From Mobula hypostoma (lineage: Eukaryota), in assembly GCF_963921235.1 (NCBI RefSeq), contig NC_086107.1:94552001-94616000 (forward strand): a stretch of 64,000 bases of DNA. Direction: 5' to 3'. This document shows, in pieces, positions 1,115-61,570 of the stretch; within the stretch, counting starts at the first letter, position 1, and the number at the start of each line of letters is the position of its first letter. The position numbers were made by a program, and so were the translations under genes. The notes beneath the pieces are model-generated. The model was not told the origin of the DNA. It ran no database searches and saw nothing but the letters and a program-made list of their open reading frames with translations.

Positions 1115-1765
1115 CAGTAAACACACACAGAATGCTGGAGGAACTCAACAGGTCAGGCACCATGTATAGAAATTAATAGATAGTCCATGTTTCAGGCAGA
1201 GACCCTTCTTCAGGACTGAGAAGGAAGGGGAAAGACACCAGAAATAAAAGGTGGGGGTGGGGGGAGGGGAAGGAGGCTAGCTGGAAGGTGATAGGCAAAG
1301 CCAGGTGGATGGGAAAGGTCAAGGGCCGGAGAAGAAGGAATCCATTATGAAGAGAGTGGACCTTAGGAGGAAGGGACCCAGGAGGAAGTGACAGGCAGGT
1401 GAGAAGAAGTAAAAGGTCAGAGTGGGGAATAGATGGGGGGGTGAGGGAAGAATTTGTTTACCAGAAGGAAAAATCGATATTCATGCCATCAGGTACCCAG
1501 ATGGAACATACTGTTACTCCCCCACTCTGAGGGTGGCCTCATCATAGCACAAGAGGAGACTGTGGACCAACATGTCAGAACAGGAATGGGAATTAAAACG
1601 CTTGGCCACCAGGAAGTCCCACTTGTGGCGGATGGTGCAGAGGTGCTCAACAAAGCAGCCCCCCCCCCCAATTTAGGACGGGTCTCACCAACGTAGAGCA
1701 GGCCACACCGGACTCAATAGATGACCCGAGCAGAGTCACAGGTGAAGTGTCACCTCACCCGGAAA
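1115..1765 (-). mobile_element. PLE fragment (GIY-YIG C-terminus plus terminal repeat)
   Basis: The minus strand encodes decayed GLLYVGET..RF.EHL, HFNS and EATLR motifs, followed by the shared terminal repeat. Confidence 0.75.
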
Positions 1766-14790: not shown

Positions 14791-16421
14791 CAGAGATTTA
14801 TTACCTTGACTTGGATGAACTGAAGTTTGTCATTTTGCAGTGGCGGTACAGACCAAAGACATCAAGTAAGAATAAATTACAACAATATATAAAATAGTGA
14901 AGATAATAATAAGGAGGAATTGTTATGACAGAGGAGATATCAGATACTGGAACAACATACAAAGGGCTGAAGGACTCAGTGGGTCAGGCAGCATCTGTGG
15001 AGGGAAATGCTCTTCACTCACATGCTGAATCTCCTTAAACCATTGAGAAAGTAGAAAATTATAAGCGCAAAAGATTATGCAGATGCTGGAGATCTTGAGC
15101 TACACACACATAAAATGCTGGAGGAATTCAACATCGGGAAGCATCTGTGCAGCTTTCTCCAACTTCTACTAATTCCTCACTCTCCCTCCTCCTCTCGTTT
15201 TCTATTCCTCATTCTGGTTACCCTCTCACTCCTTCTCTTCTCCTCACCTGTGGTTCCCCCTCCTCCCTCCCTTTCTTCCATGGTTCACTGCCTTCTTCAG
15301 CTCTTTCCGTCTTCACCTCCCCCTCCCCTCACCTGGTCCTATCTCTCACCTCCTCCACCTTCTTATTCCAGCTTCTTTCTCCTTCCTTCTCAGTCCTCAT
15401 GAAGGGTCACACATCCCAAAACAGCATCGTACTAACTGCTGCACTACTGTGGCTCTGCTGATAGTTTTGTTAATCTGCCACATTCAAGGGTTTTGTGCAC
15501 CGAGCACTTTGTATTAGGATTCCTTTTAAAATTACGTGATCTTTCCTGTTGTCTTATCTCACTAATGACTGTTGTTTCCCCATAACCATTCCCAATTCTT
15601 TTCATACCTATTCCCTTCTACAAAGTTTCCCTGTTCGTCCCACTTCGGAATGTATTTCAAACTTGTTATATGGGTGGCACCTTCTGGTTCCATGACAGAT
15701 CGTTGACCTAAAACACGAACTCTTAATCTCTTTCCACAGATTGCTTGACACAGAACACCACAGCAAAGGACCTTTTAACCTACTTTAAGATATACCTAAC
15801 CCTTCCCTTCCACCTAGCCCTCCATTTTTCCTTCAGCCATACGCTGATCTAAGAGTCTCTTAAAATGTTCATCTTGTATCCACATCTACCACCACTCCTG
15901 CCAGCGTGTTCCACACTTGGCCTTTAAAAAACCTCTTACAACTCACCCACCCCCTACTTTCCTCCAATCACCTTAAAATTAGCCATTTCAACCCTGGGAG
16001 AAAGACACTGGCTGTCCATTCTAGTTACATCTCTTAACATCTTGTACACCTCTATCAAGTCACCTCTCATCCTCCTTCGCTCCAAAGAAAAGCCCTAGTT
16101 CACTCAACCTTTCCTCATAAGACATGCTCTCTAATCCAGGCAGCATCCTGATAAATCTCCTCTGCACCCTCTCTAAAGTTTCCATGTTTTCCTATAATGA
16201 GGTGACCAGAACCGAACTCCAAGTGTGGTCTAATCAGTGTTTTATAGAGCGGCAACATTATCTTGAGGCACTGGAACTCAATCCCCCAACTAATGAAGGC
16301 CAACACACTATATTCTTAACCAAGCTATCAACTTGCGTGGCAACTTTGAGGGATTTATGGCTGTGGATCCCAAAAACCCTGTTTCCCTCAACACTGCTAA
16401 GAATCCTGCCATCAACCCTGT

Positions 16422-16909
16422 CAGTCAGTTCAGAGGGTGCCGTCCCGAATCCAGGGTTGGTGGCTATGCACCTCCATCTTCTTCGATCTTGCGACAGCAC
16501 CGAGTACAGCCTCTCCTCCAGTTTGTTCTCACTGGCCGTCTTGGCACCGACTACCGCCGCCCCCGCCGAACTCGAGCCCGAGGCTGTGTTGGCCTCCAGC
16601 CGCGGCCACTTCTTCGAGCTCGGCCCTTCCTTAGGTACACGGTGCAGCACCCAAGTTCATCACGTCTCTTCTAACTCGGTGCATAGCATACAATTCGTAG
16701 ATACGTGGTGAGGCTTTAATCTCTTCTACGGAAGATGGCCGTTGGCTCACAAGGTGCTCATCCGCCCTTTATCAGGTCTTGTTTTTTTATTTCAGTCCTG
16801 CTGGGTGTCCTCACACCCTCCTCAACAGACTAAGTCCAGTGGGGGAACCGGCCCAAGTCGCCGACCACTCGACCACAGCCCTCAGCCGAGCACCCGCCCC
16901 CCGCCGAAT
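16422..16909 (-). mobile_element. Chimeric RTE-type non-autonomous retro-insertion carrying a host exon fragment
   Basis: Perfect 13-bp TSD ccatcaaccctgt at 16409-16421 and 16910-16922. The 3' end encodes QDRRRWR and ends in tgaactgactg. The 5' part shares ggcggatgag..gtgag..ccaa.ggcca with the RTE-like element at 61040-61570. Confidence 0.85.
16494..16632 (-). pseudogene. ZFTRAF1: Captured fragment of a ZFTRAF1/CYHR1-like N-terminal coding exon
   Basis: Translates to KEGPSSKKWPRLEANTASGSSSAGAAVVGAKTASENKLEERLYSVL. This matches the recalled vertebrate ZFTRAF1 pattern PPKKRLR..(Ala/Gly linker)..GKLEERLYSVLCC. CpG-rich, as expected for a first exon. Confidence 0.75.
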
Positions 16910-17154
16910 CCATCAACCCTGTATTCTACCTTCAAATTTGACCTTCCAAGGGAATCACTTCATTTTTATAAACTGTACTCCGTCTGCCACTTCTTGGCCC
17001 AGCTCTGCATCCTGTCAATGCCCCATATTAACCTACAACAACCTTCAACACAACCCTCAACAGAAGCAACTTTTGTATCATCTGCAAACATACAAGCTCT
17101 AATTTTGAACACTTTGTAGTTTTCTGTCCATCTAGTCGAATAATACATTGTACT

Positions 17155-18130
17155 AGAGATGTAAGAGACTGCAGATGCTGAAATCTGGAGCAACACACAA
17201 AATGCTGGAGGAACTCAGCAGGTCAGGCAGCATCTGTAGAAGGAAATGGACAGTCAATGTTTCAGGTCGAGACCTTTCATCCAGATTCCAAGATAAAGGG
17301 GGGATAAGGAATATAAAGAGGTGGAGGAGAGGAATTACAAACAAGGGAAAATCTGCAGATGCTGGAAATCTGAGCAACACACACAAAATGCTGGAGGAAC
17401 ACAACAGGCCAGGCAGCATCTATGGAAAAGAAGTATAATCGATGTTTCGGGCTGAAACCCTTCGGCAGGACTGGAGAAAAATAGCTAAGCAGTAGACTTA
17501 AAAGGTAGGGGGAGGGGAGAGAGAAACACAAGGTGATAGGTGAAGCTTGGAAGGGAGGGACCATGAAGAGCTGGGAGGGTGATTGGTGAAAGAGATACAG
17601 GGCTGGAGAAGGGGGAGTCTGATAGAAGAGGACAGAAGGCCATGGAAGAAAGGATGGGGGAGAAGCACCAGAGGGAGGCAATGGGTGGGAAAGGAGATAA
17701 AGTGAGAGAGGGAAAAGGGGATGGGGAATGGTGAGGGGGAGGGGGGCATTACCAGAAATTTAAGTAATCAGTGTTCATGCCATCAGGTTGGAGGCAACCC
17801 AGACGGAATATAAGGTGATGTTCCTCCAACCTGAGTGTGGCCTCATCGCAACAGGAGTAAATCTACTCCTCAGCTCTTTTTCTCCAGCTGAAGGGTTTCG
17901 GCCTGAAACATTGACTATTTTTTTTTCCATAGACGTTGCCTGGCCTGCTGAGTTCCTCCAGCATTTTGTGTGTGTTTGGGAGGAAAGGAGCTGGCAGGTG
18001 ATGGGTAGATCCAGGTGGGGAGGGATGATAGGCAGATAGAGGGGGAGAGTGGGATTTGCAATAGGTGGGCTGACAAATGGTGGAGTTGAATGGACAGGAA
18101 GTTGGAGCTGTGGGCAGATGAGACCCAGTG
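17155..18130. mobile_element. Cluster of PLE terminal repeats in mixed orientation
   Basis: Three copies of the gatgctgcctg..gagttcctccagcattttgtgtg terminus plus an EATLRLEEH remnant. Confidence 0.8.
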
Positions 18131-56869: not shown

Positions 56870-59205
56870 GATAGTGTCGGGCTTAGAGGGCATGAGCTGT
56901 AAGAGAGGTTGGACAAAACTTGGGTTGTTTTCTCTAGAATGTAATCTCTAGAACGGAATAATCAGCCAGAATCTTCGTCTCAAGGTCCAAATCTCTAATA
57001 CCAGAGGGCATACATTTAAGGTGAAAGGGGGAAGGGTCAAAGGAGATGTGAGGGGCACATGTTTTACACAACGAGGGGTGGGTGCCTGGAATGCACTGCC
57101 AGGGTTGGTAGTGGAGGCAGATGCAACAGAGGTATTTAAGGGGTTCTTGGATAGACACGTGATATGCAAAGATCGGAGGGATGTTTACATTGGGCAGGCA
57201 GAAGGGGTTTGTTTGCTTAGACATTTAGTTACCATTTGCCTCAACATCATGAGCTGAAGGGCCTGTGCCTGTGCTGTGCTGTCACAGAGCATCACTGAAT
57301 GGATTTCGGCCCATCTAGTCCGTGCTGACCTATTTTTTGACTAGTCCCATCTACCTGTGCCTGGAATATATCCCCCCATAATCTCTCCCATCCGTGTTCC
57401 CTTTGCAAACTTCTCTTAAGACTTCTCTGTAGTACTATGGGCAGTTTTGGGCTCCTTATTTAAGAAAGGATGTGCTGACGTTGGAGAGGGTTCAGAGAAA
57501 GTTCACTAGAATGATTCCGGGAATGAGAGGGTTAACATATGAGGAACGTTTGTCCGCTCTTGGACTGTATTCCTTGGAGTTTAGAAGAATGAGGGGGGAC
57601 CTCATAGAAACATTTCGAATGTTGAAAGGCATGGACAGAGTGGGTGTGGCAAAATTGTTTCCCATATGGTGGGGGAGTCTAGTACGAGAGGGCATGACTT
57701 AAGGATTGAAGGGCGCCCATTCAGAACAGAAATGTGAAAAAAAATTTTTAGCCAGAGGGTGGTGAATCTATGGAATTTGTTGCCACGGGCGGCAGTGGAG
57801 GCCAAGTCATTGGGTGTATTTAAGGCAGAGATTGATAGGTATCTGAGTAGCCAGGGCATCAAAGGTTATAGTGAGAAGGCAGGGGAGTGGGACTAAATGG
57901 GAGAATGGATCAGCTCATGATAAAATGGCGGAGCAGACTGGATGGGCCAAATGGCCGACTTCTGCTCCTTTGTCTTATGGTATAAATGTACTTGTAGTGG
58001 TGTTGATCACTTCCACTGGCAGCTAGCTCCAGTCTCTGAGTGAAGAAGCTCCACCTCGGGTTTCCCTTAAACATTTCACCCTTCACCCTAAACTAGGGTT
58101 GCCAACTTTCTCACTCCCAAGTAAGGGACAAAAGTAGCAGTCAAATACGGGACACTTGTATTTACCCCGAGAAAGACTACCATGACCATGAAACCTTGTG
58201 CGGGCACCTGTGTGCGCATGCGTGCCGTGCACATACATGACGTGCGCATGCGTGAACATGCCTATTTTTTTCCATAAATCGGTTTTGGCTTAATCTTCCT
58301 GATTCTGTTAAGTGAAACTACACTGTACATACATTATTTCTACTTTATATAGTCTGTGTATTTATCATATCATTCCTGCTTTTACTATATGTTAGTGTTA
58401 TTTTAGGTTTTATGTGTTATTTGGTATGATTTGATAGGTTATTTTTTGGGTCTGGGAACGCTCAAAAATTTTTCCCATATAAATTAATGGTAATTGCTTC
58501 TTCGCTTTACGCCATTTTGGCTTACGAACGGTTTCATAGGAACGCTCTACCTTAGCGGGGGGAATACGGGTCAAGTGCAGTCCCATATGGGACAAACCAA
58601 TTTAGCCTAATATATGGGATGTCCCGGCTAATACAGGACAGTTGGCAACCCTACCCTAAACCTATGACCTCTAGTTGTTGTCCCACCCAACCTCTGTGGA
58701 AAAAGCCTGCTTGTATTTACCCTATCCGTACCTCTCATAATTTTGTATACCCTCGTTCTTTCACACTCCAGGGAATAAAGTTCTAAGCTATTCAGTCTTT
58801 CCTTATAACTCAGGACCTCAAGCCCCAGCAACATTCTTGTAAATTTTCCCTGTACTCTTTCAAGATCATTGACATCCTTCCTGTCGGTAGGTGACCAAGA
58901 CTGCACACAATACTCCAAAATAGGTCTCACCAACATATTATACAACTTCAACATAACATTTTAACTCCTGGATTCAATGCCCTAATCTAGGAAGGCCAAT
59001 GTACCGAAAGTTCTCTTTACGACCCTATCTACTCGTGACTGTACTTTCAAGGAATTATGGATTTGTATTCCCAGATCCCTCTGTTCTACCATACTCCTGA
59101 GTGCCCTATCGTTCACTATGTAAGTTCTACCCTGGTTTGTCCTGCCAAAGTGCAGCACCCCACACTTGTCTGCATTAAATTCCATCTACCATTCTTAGCC
59201 CATTT
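56870..59205. mobile_element. Mosaic of CR1 3' fragments in both orientations
   Basis: ORFs 57021-57257 (+), 57472-57702 (+), 58628-58954 (-) and 58982-59185 (-) carry CR1 C-terminal motifs. Confidence 0.85.
58094..58653. mobile_element. hAT-family MITE (560 bp)
   Basis: Perfect 14-bp TIR tagggttgccaact/agttggcaacccta and perfect 8-bp TSD ccctaaac (58086-58093, 58654-58661). Inserted in a CR1. Confidence 0.95.
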
Positions 59206-61039
59206 TTCTGTCCTGTGTTCCAACTCAGTGGGTCAGGCGGTGTCTACAGAGGGAAAAAATATAGACACAGGAGGTACTGCAGATCCTGGAAATCTAGAGC
59301 AATACATACAATGTGCTGGAGGACCTCAGCGGGTCAGGTAGCAACCGTGGTTGGGAATAAACAATTGATGTTTCGGGCCAAGACCCTCCATCAGGGCTGG
59401 AAAGGGAGGAGGGAGAAGTCAGAATAAGAAAGTGGGGGGAGGGGAGGAAGAAGTACAAGATGGCAGGTGATAGGTGAAACCGGGAGAGGGGGACAAATGA
59501 AGTAAAGAGCTGGGAAGTCAACTGGTGAAAGAGATAAATGGCTGGAGAAGGTGGGTATCTGATAGGAGGGGACAGAAGACCAAGGAAGAGAGGGAAGGGG
59601 AGGAGCACCAGAGGGAGGTGATGAGCAAGCAAGGTGAGAAGGTGTGACAGAGGAACAAGAATGGGAAAAATATCTTTACATTTTTCCCTGCAGATGCTGC
59701 CTGACCTCCTGAGTTTTTCCAGCTTCCTGTGTGTTGCTCCAGATTCCAGCATCTGCAGACCGTTCCATAAATCAGAAAAAAAAAACTCTGTCCATCAACA
59801 TGCTGGGGGCTCGTGGTGCCAAACCAATAGATTTGGGACACCAAAGCGGAATAACATCCAACAGTTATTAATATTAATACCCCCACTGCTGATATACAAC
59901 AATGTAATAAATTTTCCAGTGCACATGGTGAGTTTCAAGGGGACTAGAACTAAGTGTCCTCGGTATGGCAACATTACAACCACTTTGCCCTACATAGACA
60001 TTCTTTTGTTTCCATCTTGTTCTTTTTTATATAATTTTGTTCAATTCGTGTTTAATTTGTGTCTTTTTCCCCTATCTGATGCTCTGTGGCCCGTGATGCT
60101 GCTGCAAGTAAATTTTTCGTTGTACCCATGCAGACCCAAGACCTTAAGACATATGAGCAGAATTAGACCAACACACACAAAATACTGGAGGAACTCAGCA
60201 GGCCAGGCAGCATCTACGGAAAAGAGTGAACTTTTTTTCCATAGATGCAGCCTGGCCTGCAGAGTTCCTCCAGCATTTTGTGTGTGTGCTGCTCGGCTTT
60301 CCAGCACCTGCAGATTTTCTCTTGTTTGTGACCAGAATTAGACCATTTATTTAATTATGGCTGATTTATTTTTTCTCTCAACCCCATCCTCCTGCATTCT
60401 CCCCGTCACCTTTGACGTCCTGACTAATTAAGGACTAGTGCCTGCGCATATAACGATAAACTCAAATTTGACCTGTTTTTTTGACAAGTTTTTTTTTCTG
60501 ATTTATGGAACAGATTGCAGATCAGCAGGTCAGGCAGAATTTAAGGGAAGGTGTTGGGGGGGGGAGGAATCGGGGACCCTGCTGTGTGGGAGGGAATGAG
60601 GAAAACACACTACATTGTGCTGAAGGGTGTGCAGGGAAATAGTGAACCATTGGGACCCTCGTTCTCCAGGAAATGCCCTACTACCATTGGGGAGGAGGTA
60701 CAGGAGCCTGAAGGCGCGCACTCAAAGACTCCTGGCTATCACGAGCGGTCCACGGTCTCTGATTGACTGTTATTTATATAATAAAGTCCTCCGGGGAAGT
60801 CAAAGCCCTGGGTGAGCAGCCCCAAGTCCATGTCCGGTGGAGGCCCGATCTGGGGTTAAAGGACTGTGTACGTGTGTGGGTGGGCGGAAGGAAAGGGGGC
60901 TTGTTGTTGCTGTTGTTTTGTTGCTGGCTTGTGCTCTGTGCTGTTTTGCTGAACGTGGTGGGCACGCTATGTGGGTGCCGGAATGTGAGGCGGCTCTTGC
61001 GGGATGCTCGATGGCGCAAACGGCGCATTCCACTGTCAC

Positions 61040-61570
61040 GTGCTGGTTGTCCGTCGTGTCCGATGACGACGGGGAAACCCATCCAAGCGAGTTTTTCGAA
61101 TGGAAAAGCCATTGCACTGTGGGGCAATCCCACTCTCTCGACCTCAGAAGTCCAAGTCCAGTGGTACGAACAAGCGTCACAAACTGGGGTCTTTCTTGGT
61201 TGCAGTGGATGACCATGACGTCTTCTGTACCTTGTCCTGCTCTCTGCGGACCGTTGTAGTACACCTTCCTGGCCATTGGACCTCACTGTAGATCTCATCC
61301 GCCGAGTCTACGAGAGCTGTCTTCGTACGCTGGGACAGGCATGTCCCTATCTCACTGGGGTATGAGGCCTCCAGCTACCCTCACCTGGTTTAGCCCGCTT
61401 GTCGAGGCGGTGTACCAGGATGTGGCCGCTGTCACATGCAAACAGCTACTTGGAGCCAGAGGTGAGAGCTGAGCGTCTGGTTGGGGGACCAAAGGTGAGT
61501 TAGGTGCCCCGGAATGGACACAACAAATCCCCTCACCAGAGGTGCTACCCCGCCCTCCCTGGACACTCCA
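61040..61570 (-). mobile_element. RTE 5'-UTR-like non-autonomous element
   Basis: CpG-retaining insert in a SINE tail, homologous to 61847-62154 (ccccagtgagatagggaca shared). Confidence 0.6.

Follow-up and report, generated by a model that had tools for sequence, protein, structure and literature searches.

A retroposon family of Mobula hypostoma carrying a circularly permuted piece of ZFTRAF1 exon 1 between the ends of an RTE-like LINE

The CpG-rich insert analyzed here, found in a 64,000-nucleotide stretch of the Mobula hypostoma genome (the window: NCBI RefSeq assembly GCF_963921235.1, contig NC_086107.1, positions 94,552,001 to 94,616,000, forward strand), is a member of a non-autonomous retroposon family, with a full length of approximately 570 bp and roughly 10^3 copies. 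In this family, a piece of the first exon of the host gene ZFTRAF1 is set between the 5' and 3' ends of a LINE. This gene piece is circularly permuted, with its last 40 nt placed first, followed by its first 138 nt, which represents one exact turn of a 178-nt unit. The permutation is new beyond the original prediction, made from the letters of the window alone, which had proposed that template switching placed a piece of host RNA inside a LINE-mobilized unit, a proposal supported here by the presence of LINE ends and gene filler in the same element.

Structure of the insert

The insert extends from position 16422 to position 16909 (488 bp), with its sense strand on the minus strand, and is bracketed by a perfect target-site duplication (13 of 13 positions, CCATCAACCCTGT) at 16409-16421 and 16910-16922. 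Its GC content is 0.582, and it contains 33 CpG dinucleotides, with a CpG observed/expected ratio of 0.83, versus 0.19 and 0.13 in the 500-bp flanks. The predicted length, CpG richness and duplication are thus confirmed, as is the three-part structure, made up of a LINE 5'UTR, ZFTRAF1 exon 1, and a LINE 3' end. On the minus strand, the frame of the insert reads ..PKEGPSSKKWPRLE..ENKLEERLYSVLSQDRRRWRCIATNPGFGTAPSELT, and the element terminates in ..tgaactgactgac. The features of the region are as follows:

16115..16315, minus strand: host sequence with CR1-like reverse-transcriptase C-terminal motifs, split by the insert (open reading frame ..LPLYKTLIRPHLEF..; 0 Pfam families)
16409..16421, no strand: target-site duplication, copy adjoining the 3' tail of the element (CCATCAACCCTGT, the same as 16910-16922)
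16422..16493, minus strand: 3' end of the LINE, in which the final ~60 nt of its ORF (..QDRRRWRCIATNPGFGTAP..) are followed by a degenerate (ACTG)n tail (74-nt match of 95.9% identity to LINE copy L074 at its 3' end)
16494..16631, minus strand: ZFTRAF1 exon-1 piece B (gene L034, 1691..1554), in the native frame of the gene, KEGPSSKK..ENKLEERLYSVL (128 of 138 nt identical to the gene of this genome; protein match to ZFTRAF1)
16632..16648, minus strand: ZFTRAF1 exon-1 piece A (gene L034, 1553..1514), a 17-nt remnant with 23 nt deleted, read from the window sequence (all 40 nt kept in family copies)
16649..16909, minus strand: part derived from the LINE 5'UTR, 5'-truncated within the loop of the terminal hairpin of the family (identity of 84-86% between 16665-16875 and the 5'UTRs of LINE copies L074 and L077)
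16910..16922, no strand: target-site duplication, copy adjoining the 5' end of the element (perfect match to 16409-16421)
16966..17214, minus strand: same old LINE remnant, upstream of the insert, with a FADDTK.. motif (0 Pfam families)

The window copy is 5'-truncated by approximately 65-70 bp in comparison with the full-length copies of the family, and lacks 23 nt of the first gene piece (piece A), two losses which the original prediction had missed. The insert has no Rfam match at E<=1 in the window copy, and the sole Rfam match in the interval 15500-18000 is a sub-threshold SNORD24 (E 0.49) located outside the insert, while Pfam recovers 0 families in the frame of the insert.

The flanks contain, on the minus strand, the CR1-like reverse-transcriptase motifs FADDTK.. 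and ..LYKTLIRPHLEF, which are presumably marks of CR1. Given that Pfam finds 0 families in either of the flanking ORFs, the assignment of the host sequence to an old CR1 is a motif-level call only. A motif that had been thought to link the insert to positions 61271-61303 is shared by chance, with no match being found there by either three full-length family copies (blastn) or the partner LINE (blastn and tblastn). Elsewhere in the window, outside the insert, the full-length copies match only at E >= 0.04, whereas the partner LINE matches only inside the insert, as both DNA and protein.

The family and its partner LINE

The search for the family returned 2153 first-look candidates, and all 40 of the 40 that were scored are near full length, with 82-100% identity. 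The 30-mer spanning the junction between piece B and the tail (<=3 mismatches) occurs at 802 places and the 27-mer spanning the junction between pieces A and B at 797, numbers which are bounds rather than a census, with none in the reversed-pattern controls. Copies at different loci share the same junctions and have different target-site duplications, which bears out the expectation of a multi-copy family, and they are found throughout the genome in both orientations. In a crude exact scan, end repeats of at least 8 bp are present in 30 of the 55 rows, and of at least 10 bp in 16 of the 55, and one copy (L042) has an 18-bp target-site duplication. The starts of the copies vary from position 1 to position 251 (55 rows). 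The family is thus dispersed with target-site duplications and variable 5' truncation, and its 3' end is common to an autonomous LINE of the same genome, as in the stringent type of LINE-mobilized retroposon.

From 5' to 3', the element is composed of an inverted arm, the LINE 5'UTR to just past the start codon of the short first ORF, piece A (40 nt), piece B (138 nt), and the end of the LINE ORF. The extra ~65 nt at the 5' end of the full-length copies is an inverted copy of the LINE-derived part, with approximately 55 nt being the inverse of the sequence that follows, which forms a terminal hairpin (-75.5 kcal/mol, z -4.33). At the other end, the terminal module comprises the final ~60 nt of the ORF of the LINE, whose native stop codon lies inside the (ACTG)n tail. 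No pol III head derived from tRNA, 7SL, 5S or snRNA was found in the window copy, the 5' part being LINE 5'UTR, and the family is therefore an internally deleted LINE with host filler, and not a classical SINE. The SINE family carrying a gene fragment, as originally envisaged, thus holds as a multi-copy family and not as a SINE. It may already have been catalogued as a non-autonomous RTE, with the gene piece passing unnoticed. The literature searched contains no link between ZFTRAF1/CYHR1 and transposable elements or SINEs, nor a circularly permuted retrotransposon family of this kind.

The partner LINE is represented by one near-full copy (L074, 2893-6118, ~3.2 kb), in which the ORF is broken. 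Its only domains are Exo_endo_phos and RVT_1, its ORF terminates in ..AQDRRRWRCIATNPGFGTAPTD, with the stop codon within the (ACTG)n tail, and a short upstream ORF overlaps the start region. This copy is homologous to the element only in the 5'UTR and over the final ~75 nt, and it contains no ZFTRAF1-like segment. The LINE 5'UTR is 88-89% identical to the family over approximately 210 nt, and the true 5' end of the LINE is based on two copies that reach it, from six short stretches. Twelve of the 30 tail-only loci are copies of the LINE truncated to between 89 and >1575 bp, with variable 5' ends, and these 12 APE+RT loci have nothing beyond the final ~75 nt in common with the element.

The homologs of the LINE have ORFs of 900-980 aa on contigs of approximately 3-3.6 kb, and the best named matches are "Craniofacial development protein 2" and a Bombyx endonuclease-reverse transcriptase. 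The former name is presumably tied to BovB/RTE, and no paper on this link was found in the literature searched. The architecture is that of an RTE, a ~3.2-kb element with a single long ORF encoding APE and RT, neither RNase H nor a gag-like ORF1, hardly any 3'UTR, and a tail of short repeats. By its size, architecture and the names of its matches, and not by a tree, the partner LINE may be considered RTE-like. The RTE-type ends that had been predicted are thus upheld in that both match a single APE+RT LINE, with the 3' end joined in frame, and the clade label is derived from these same three attributes.

The permuted ZFTRAF1 fragment and its reading frame

In the protein search, the only match of the middle segment is the zinc finger TRAF-type-containing protein 1 of Pristis pectinata (E 8e-6, 31 of 49 residues identical), which is the gene that had been predicted. 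At the DNA level, the segment is 93-95% identical to exon 1 of the ZFTRAF1 of the same genome, a gene with four coding exons (contig C5), arranged in the same order as the sawfish protein. A majority-rule reading of 53 copies agrees with the gene at 175 of the 178 positions, differs from it at positions 37, 85 and 150 of the permuted unit, and has no majority indel, and the permuted string A+B aligns to all 38 of 38 copies, mostly end to end, and with up to 96% identity in the best case. Family copies account for 98 of the 102 ZFTRAF1 protein matches scored in this genome.

The order in the gene is 1691..1554 and then 1553..1514, whereas in the element it is 1553..1514 and then 1691..1554. Piece A lies directly downstream of piece B in the gene, and the exit point (1553) and the entry point (1554) adjoin with neither gap nor overlap. 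The captured exon piece is thus ZFTRAF1 exon 1, as foreseen, though it is a circularly permuted 178-nt part rather than a simple exon. The non-colinear junction, in which gene position 1514 is joined to 1691, is found in 38 of 38 copies, and the string CTA/AGGAAGG (the slash marks the join) in nearly all of the 53. The unit stops 4 nt short of the exon-1 splice donor, with the exon ending past the junction at CAG/gt (1510), and 1691 is not immediately preceded by an AG; as it stands, the junction of pieces A and B is not a canonical back-splice junction. Its sequence would correspond to the canonical donor joined to a cryptic AG acceptor (1691-1690) on condition that two C's ("CC") had disappeared.

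The upstream part of the open frame of the element starts at the short first ORF of the LINE itself. In intact copies, a 93-aa fusion frame contains the start of this first ORF, ZFTRAF1 residues, which include a nuclear-localization-like KKRPR motif, and the LINE C-terminus, with the native stop in the tail. A search for homologs of near the same length as the 122-aa open frame returned 45 candidates, none of them with E<=0.001. The frames are still open in 19 of the 53 copies, and the substitutions per non-CpG site at codon positions 1, 2 and 3 (81/3064, 51/2624 and 58/2461, respectively) reveal no third-position excess. Coding constraint on the copies is rejected on this basis, which does not bear on past master copies, and the family copies decay neutrally.

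Origin of the chimera and its meaning

The founding element was probably a chimeric cDNA formed during LINE reverse transcription, when the enzyme switched to a ZFTRAF1 RNA that was circular or circle-like and then returned to the LINE RNA, and was subsequently amplified in trans. The reverse transcriptase would start on the LINE 3' end and switch to a small ZFTRAF1 exon-1 RNA, either circular or closed end to end, which would be copied until the enzyme reached its own starting point. It would then return to the LINE RNA in the 5'UTR, bypassing approximately 2.9 kb of the LINE body, and a snap-back at the end would add the hairpin arm. The chimera would retain both the presumed 5'UTR promoter of the LINE and the 3' module recognized by its reverse transcriptase, so that the enzymes of the LINE could amplify it in trans. 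A linear RNA re-entered by the enzyme, or an event at the level of the DNA, would yield the same sequence. In its most specific form, that the family is the fossil of a LINE reverse transcriptase that ran exactly one lap round a non-canonically closed ZFTRAF1 exon-1 circle, left at its own product, and then gave rise to a family of ~10^3 copies, the reading is a tentative one. If true, it would represent the first case in which a circular host RNA was captured by a LINE and the product amplified, as far as the literature searched shows.

The same chimera may have been copied from an ordinary linear ZFTRAF1 RNA, such as an mRNA, a pre-mRNA fragment or a free exon-1 splicing intermediate, although this appears unlikely. 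The enzyme would enter at 1554, run to the 5' end of the RNA at 1691, jump to 1514, the 3' end of the molecule it had just copied, and stop at 1553, at its own RNA:cDNA duplex, in a total of three jumps and with no covalent circle. End-to-end template jumping is typical of LINE-type enzymes, the junction lies away from splice sites, and the 3' end of the fragment is only 4 nt from the end of the exon, as in a slightly trimmed free 5' exon, all of which are compatible with a linear template. This path needs one jump more than a circle, however, and has to assume an RNA 5' end at 1691; the first entry would be internal, and the second jump would have to land on the same molecule.

A DNA-level origin is less probable still. 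Here, the first exon of ZFTRAF1, a CpG island, would have given rise to an extrachromosomal circle of ~178 bp (microDNA), and either this circle or a tandem duplication of the segment would have been end-joined into an internally deleted LINE, which became the master copy. MicroDNAs are described as small, GC-rich, exonic circles, which fits the 178-bp fragment, and the non-canonical junction is also consistent with this route. Nothing about a DNA circle, however, would explain an end 4 nt from the exon-intron border or the exclusion of the intron, and a separate large deletion of the LINE body would be needed at the same spot; the LINE parts and gene pieces also lie in one transcriptional orientation and in frame, an orientation that the cDNA route provides for free. 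There is practically no chance that the middle segment is LINE ORF with a fortuitous likeness to ZFTRAF1. No support was found for this idea, even though the upstream frame of the element begins at the first ORF of the LINE, and it is refuted by the agreement of the family majority with the gene, by the limits of the homology of the near-full LINE copy, which has no such segment, and by the colinearity of the gene with the sawfish protein.

The family can be compared with a number of known systems. SVA_F1, for example, is a composite non-autonomous retroposon subfamily that acquired the CpG-rich exon 1 of MAST2 and was amplified, which resembles the present family in the gain of a CpG-rich first exon from the host. 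In SVA_F1, the exon is found at the 5' end, was gained by splicing/transduction and is colinear, whereas the fragment described here is internal and circularly permuted.

Non-colinear retrocopies derived from circRNAs provide a precedent (PMC4897178), including 33 mouse copies derived from circRFWD2, the mechanism of which has been termed "mysterious" (Dong et al. 2016, PMC4897178). Like the family, these pseudogenes have a non-colinear host exon, as expected from reverse transcription across a circle junction, are multi-copy, and are associated with retroelements, in their case through the enrichment of LTRs in the flanks (PMC4897178). The circRFWD2 junction is a canonical exon 6-exon 2 back-splice, whereas that of the family falls within exon 1, 4 nt short of the donor. 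The family piece is also exactly one turn, is placed between two LINE ends, and has reached ~10^3 copies, which carry target-site duplications and the tail of a LINE.

Double template switches have been described in LINE reverse transcription (Gogvadze et al. 2007, PMC2104539). The bi- and tripartite chimeric retrogenes (PMC2104539; U6/L1 chimeras, Law and Burns 10.1101/2025.02.02.635956) share with the family the fusion of transcripts in one orientation, a LINE 3' end in the last position, direct repeats, and double switches. They are mostly single insertions, with 33 bipartite fungal elements carrying non-coding RNA, and none is reported in the literature consulted with a return to the 5'UTR of the same LINE, a permuted host exon, or a thousand-copy family (PMC2104539, 10.1101/2025.02.02.635956). 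The R2 SIDEs (PMC3414825) and the RTE-related short retroposons (PMC6007223) are non-autonomous derivatives of LINEs that arose through internal deletion. As in the family, both termini of the parent LINE are retained, the 3' end and a microsatellite-like tail are shared with it, and mobilization is in trans; in the family, by contrast, the deletion point is filled with a 178-nt host coding fragment.

For genome annotation, copies of the family will give false matches to ZFTRAF1-like exons. In vertebrates, the capture of host genes by LINE-type elements is rare, and usually results in a single dead insertion. The present chimera reached about a thousand copies, and a coding fragment of the first exon of a conserved ubiquitin-ligase-like gene has therefore been spread genome-wide, in both orientations. 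The fusion frame, or the CpG-island fragment itself, may have aided this success, and the hundreds of copies could be a source of RNA antisense to ZFTRAF1 exon 1. An RTE-like LINE can, it appears, yield a partner element through two template switches rather than by simple deletion. The exact one-turn permutation would be a footprint of how the enzyme handles its template, and provides a testable case of how circular or circle-like RNAs enter genomes.

The insert and its copies in the genome

The insert represents one copy of a short non-autonomous retroposon, in which pieces of exon 1 of ZFTRAF1 are placed between the 5' part and the tail of a LINE. It occupies 488 bp (16422-16909) between perfect copies of CCATCAACCCTGT at 16409-16421 and 16910-16922, and its GC content (0.58) and 33 CpGs (o/e 0.83, versus 0.19 and 0.13 in the 500-bp flanks) agree with the CpG-rich insert flanked by perfect direct repeats that was originally described. 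Read on the minus strand, it contains the open frame ..PKEGPSSKKWPRLEANTASGSSSAGAAVVGAKTASENKLEERLYSVLSQDRRRWRCIATNPGFGTAPSELT and ends in ..ctgaactgactgac. The same strand of the flanks carries reverse-transcriptase-like motifs of an older LINE (FADDTK.., ..LYKTLIRPHLEF), which we take to be marks of CR1; given that a Pfam search of the ORFs with these motifs recognised no family, the proposed "old CR1" host stands at the level of motifs only. A weak SNORD24-like match at 17006-17086 on the minus strand (24.4 bits, below the gathering score of 41; E 0.49) is probably due to chance. An ORF at 58628-58954, also on the minus strand, contains ..MLKLYNMLVRPILEYCVQSWSP.., a motif presumably of the C-terminal region of a CR1/L2-type reverse transcriptase, and resembles that part of another such remnant.

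In the 3.48-Gb assembly to which the window belongs, the search recovered 2153 first-look candidates, and all 40 scored matches were near full length, with 82-100% identity. Using patterns taken from the window, with up to three mismatches, the 30-mer across the junction of the gene and the LINE tail was found at 802 places (395 forward, 407 reverse), and the 27-mer across the internal gene/gene junction at 797 (393 forward, 404 reverse), with 0 occurrences of either reversed control pattern. The multi-copy family with common junctions that had been envisaged is thus present throughout the genome. Individual copies begin anywhere between positions 1 and 251 of a full-length copy, and their 3' ends consist of (ACTG)2-5. 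A crude exact-match scan without shuffle control, in which 3 of the 55 rows duplicate others, found end repeats of at least 8 bp in 30/55 rows and of at least 10 bp in 16/55, while one copy (L042) has an 18-bp duplication at its ends. One family copy occurs twice, with identical flanks, about 100 kb apart and in opposite orientation (L027 and L028, G000:C12:197074931 and 196974014), which suggests an inverted segmental duplication.

LINE origin of both ends

The 78-nt tail alone yielded 1255 candidates in the genome search, 30 of which were excised. Eighteen are family copies, and the remaining 12 have only the last ~75 nt in common with the element, the homology stopping exactly at the junction of the gene and the tail. 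Upstream of this point, these 12 loci share sequence over graded lengths (89, 116, 253, 309, 478, 670, ~900, ~975, and >1575 bp), which is the pattern of 5'-truncated LINE copies. Their frame ends in ..GRQRTTWYDNVRQWTGLSNAEARKRAQDRRRWRCIATNPGFGTAPTD, with the stop codon within the (ACTG)n tail, so the element's SQDRRRWR.. is the C-terminus of the LINE fused in frame to ZFTRAF1, which accounts for the in-frame switch noted in the original prediction.

A near-full copy of this partner LINE (L074, 2893-6118; ~3.2 kb) contains the Exo_endo_phos and RVT_1 domains, and its frame is broken into several pieces. Its relatives are ORFs of 900-980 aa on contigs of ~3-3.6 kb, several of which bear the name "Craniofacial development protein 2", a label that we presume to be attached to BovB/RTE-derived sequence; a literature search on this link found no supporting paper. 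The size, the single APE+RT ORF, the near-absent 3'UTR, and the short-repeat tail fit an RTE-like element. In the "RTE-type ends" of the original prediction, then, both ends are those of a LINE, and the RTE label is a putative one, based on size, architecture, and the names of the hits.

The 5' part of the element is 88-89% identical to the LINE 5'UTR over ~210 nt, and the match reaches ..ATGAACTTGGGC, just beyond the start codon of a short upstream LINE ORF. Compared with the five LINE 5' ends that reach beyond it, ~125 nt of the 5'UTR are absent from the element, the LINE 5' terminus being based on two copies. The extra 5' arm of the element is an inverted copy of the LINE-derived sequence that comes next, and in the predicted fold of a full-length copy the first 138 nt form a single long hairpin (-75.5 kcal/mol, z -4.33). 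The LINE copies are 90-96% identical to each other in pairwise comparisons. At one locus (L073, G000:C71:30574200-30582200), two copies lie head to tail, ~3 kb apart, with 99.9% identity over the 3' 1729 bp, which points to a local duplication; one of them has its 5' segment of ~650 bp in the opposite orientation to the body, which resembles the outcome of twin priming.

In the window, similarity to the LINE is confined to the insert, at 16665-16875 and 16420-16493. The motif thought to be common to the insert and 61271-61303 was not recovered, as neither the LINE, compared as DNA and protein, nor the family copies match the window near 61271. Overlapping ORFs of 140-174 aa are present on both strands at 60774-61298, in a GC-rich stretch described as RTE-like in the original reading, which resembles the partner LINE neither in DNA nor in protein sequence.

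Permutation of the ZFTRAF1 fragment

When the open frame of the insert was compared with longer proteins, the sole match was the zinc finger TRAF-type-containing protein 1 isoform X2 of Pristis pectinata (E 8e-6; 31/49 identical), the gene expected from the outset, and the alignment stops exactly at ..KLEERLYSVL. A search with the same sawfish protein placed the gene of this genome on contig C5, where its coding sequence is split over four exons; the first of these covers residues 1-127, and its end is CAG/gtacag at position 1510 of locus L034, in which gene positions count down along the coding strand. Of 102 scored protein matches to ZFTRAF1 in the genome, 4 are the gene exons and 98 are family copies, whose query spans start between residues 43 and 60 and end at 112/113. 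Sampled 31-mers of exon 1 and its 5' region (L034:1480-2000) are present in sequencing runs of seven organisms from 7 studies (shares 0.5-0.94), which suggests that the exon may be very highly conserved among relatives; no run with this stretch is recorded as RNA. Two pieces of this exon were captured.

Captured pieces of ZFTRAF1 exon 1, by DNA comparison with the gene (coding strand)
Piece B: gene 1691..1554, 138 nt, codes EGPSSKKRPRLEADSASGSSSAGAAAGGAKAASENKLEERLYSVL
Piece A: gene 1553..1514, 40 nt, codes CCTVCLDLPKASVY

The pieces adjoin directly in the gene, as B then A, and stand as A then B in the element, which reads LINE 5' part, 1553..1514, 1691..1554, LINE tail. The gene sequence in the element therefore starts at base 1553 and ends at its neighbour, 1554, so that the 40 + 138 nt amount to exactly one turn of a 178-nt unit in which 1514 is joined to 1691. 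If the two break points were independent, such precise abutment would be expected by chance in roughly 1 of 178 cases. The permuted string aligns to 38/38 copies, mostly end to end (best identity 96%). Across 53 copies, obtained after dropping three duplicate rows and including one row that appeared unrelated at the junction, the majority base is that of the gene at 175/178 positions, with no majority indel, and the A/B junction reads CTA/AGGAAGG in nearly all copies. As the gene is colinear with the sawfish protein, the permuted order is the derived state. This exact one-turn permutation is the most interesting feature of the element, and lay beyond the original view, as the loss of 23 nt of piece A from the window copy left only piece B to be seen. 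Homology among aligned copies extends 65-70 bp beyond the 5' end of the window copy, which is thus a 5'-truncated copy of an element of ~560-575 bp.

Origin and fate of the family

Beside the observed anatomy, common LINE ends, mobility marks, and gene identity, we infer a route of origin, of which the simplest form is as follows. Reverse transcription would begin at the 3' end of the LINE RNA, and the enzyme would switch onto ZFTRAF1 exon-1 RNA, copy exactly one lap, and halt on meeting the start of its own product. A return switch to the LINE RNA, within the 5'UTR, would be followed by a run to the 5' end, where snap-back would yield the hairpin arm. LINE enzymes have been shown to make double template switches (PMC2104539), and non-colinear retrocopies of circular RNAs are documented as well (PMC4897178).

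The template is perhaps slightly more likely than not to have been a circular or closed-loop ZFTRAF1 RNA, and a covalent circle needs the fewest jumps. Re-entry of the enzyme into a linear RNA, which needs more, appears unlikely, if less so than a DNA route through microDNA or tandem duplication, which we regard as improbable; the 3' end of the fragment lies close to the exon border, which speaks for RNA as the source, whether a circle or a free 5' exon that had been trimmed, rather than for DNA. The 1514/1691 junction is not a canonical back-splice, as the exon-1 donor follows only 4 nt later and no AG precedes 1691; with the loss of two C's, it would correspond to the donor and a cryptic AG acceptor (1691-1690). 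At L034 1714-1730 (gene strand), ~34 nt upstream of the 5' end of the fragment, exon 1 contains CCCTCCCTCTAACCCGTCGCAG, which combines a run of pyrimidines with CAG and the branch-point-like motif CTAAC and could be relevant to the use of a cryptic acceptor.

After capture, the chimera retained the 5'UTR, the presumed promoter, and the 3' module used by a LINE enzyme of this type, and would have been copied in trans. Intact copies have an open frame of 121-124 aa, with 93 aa from the LINE ATG: MHL(L/V)RRDMMNLG is followed by piece A, which is read in a shifted frame, by piece B, read as in ZFTRAF1, and by the LINE C-terminus. Mean divergence of the 53 copies from their majority is 15.9% at CpG sites and 3.0% elsewhere. 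Outside CpGs, the substitutions per site are 81/3064, 51/2624, and 58/2461 for the first, second, and third codon positions, without an excess at the third, and the frame is still open in only 19/53 copies, so the copies decay neutrally. A large protein collection contained no predicted protein of near length similar to this frame, and searches of the open-access literature gave no description of the family, nor of another LINE-derived family in which a host exon is permuted.

The original observation is confirmed, and its interpretation is essentially right. The element is akin to two known kinds, the chimeric template-switch products of LINEs and the circle-derived retrocopies, and is notable for its amplification to about a thousand copies.
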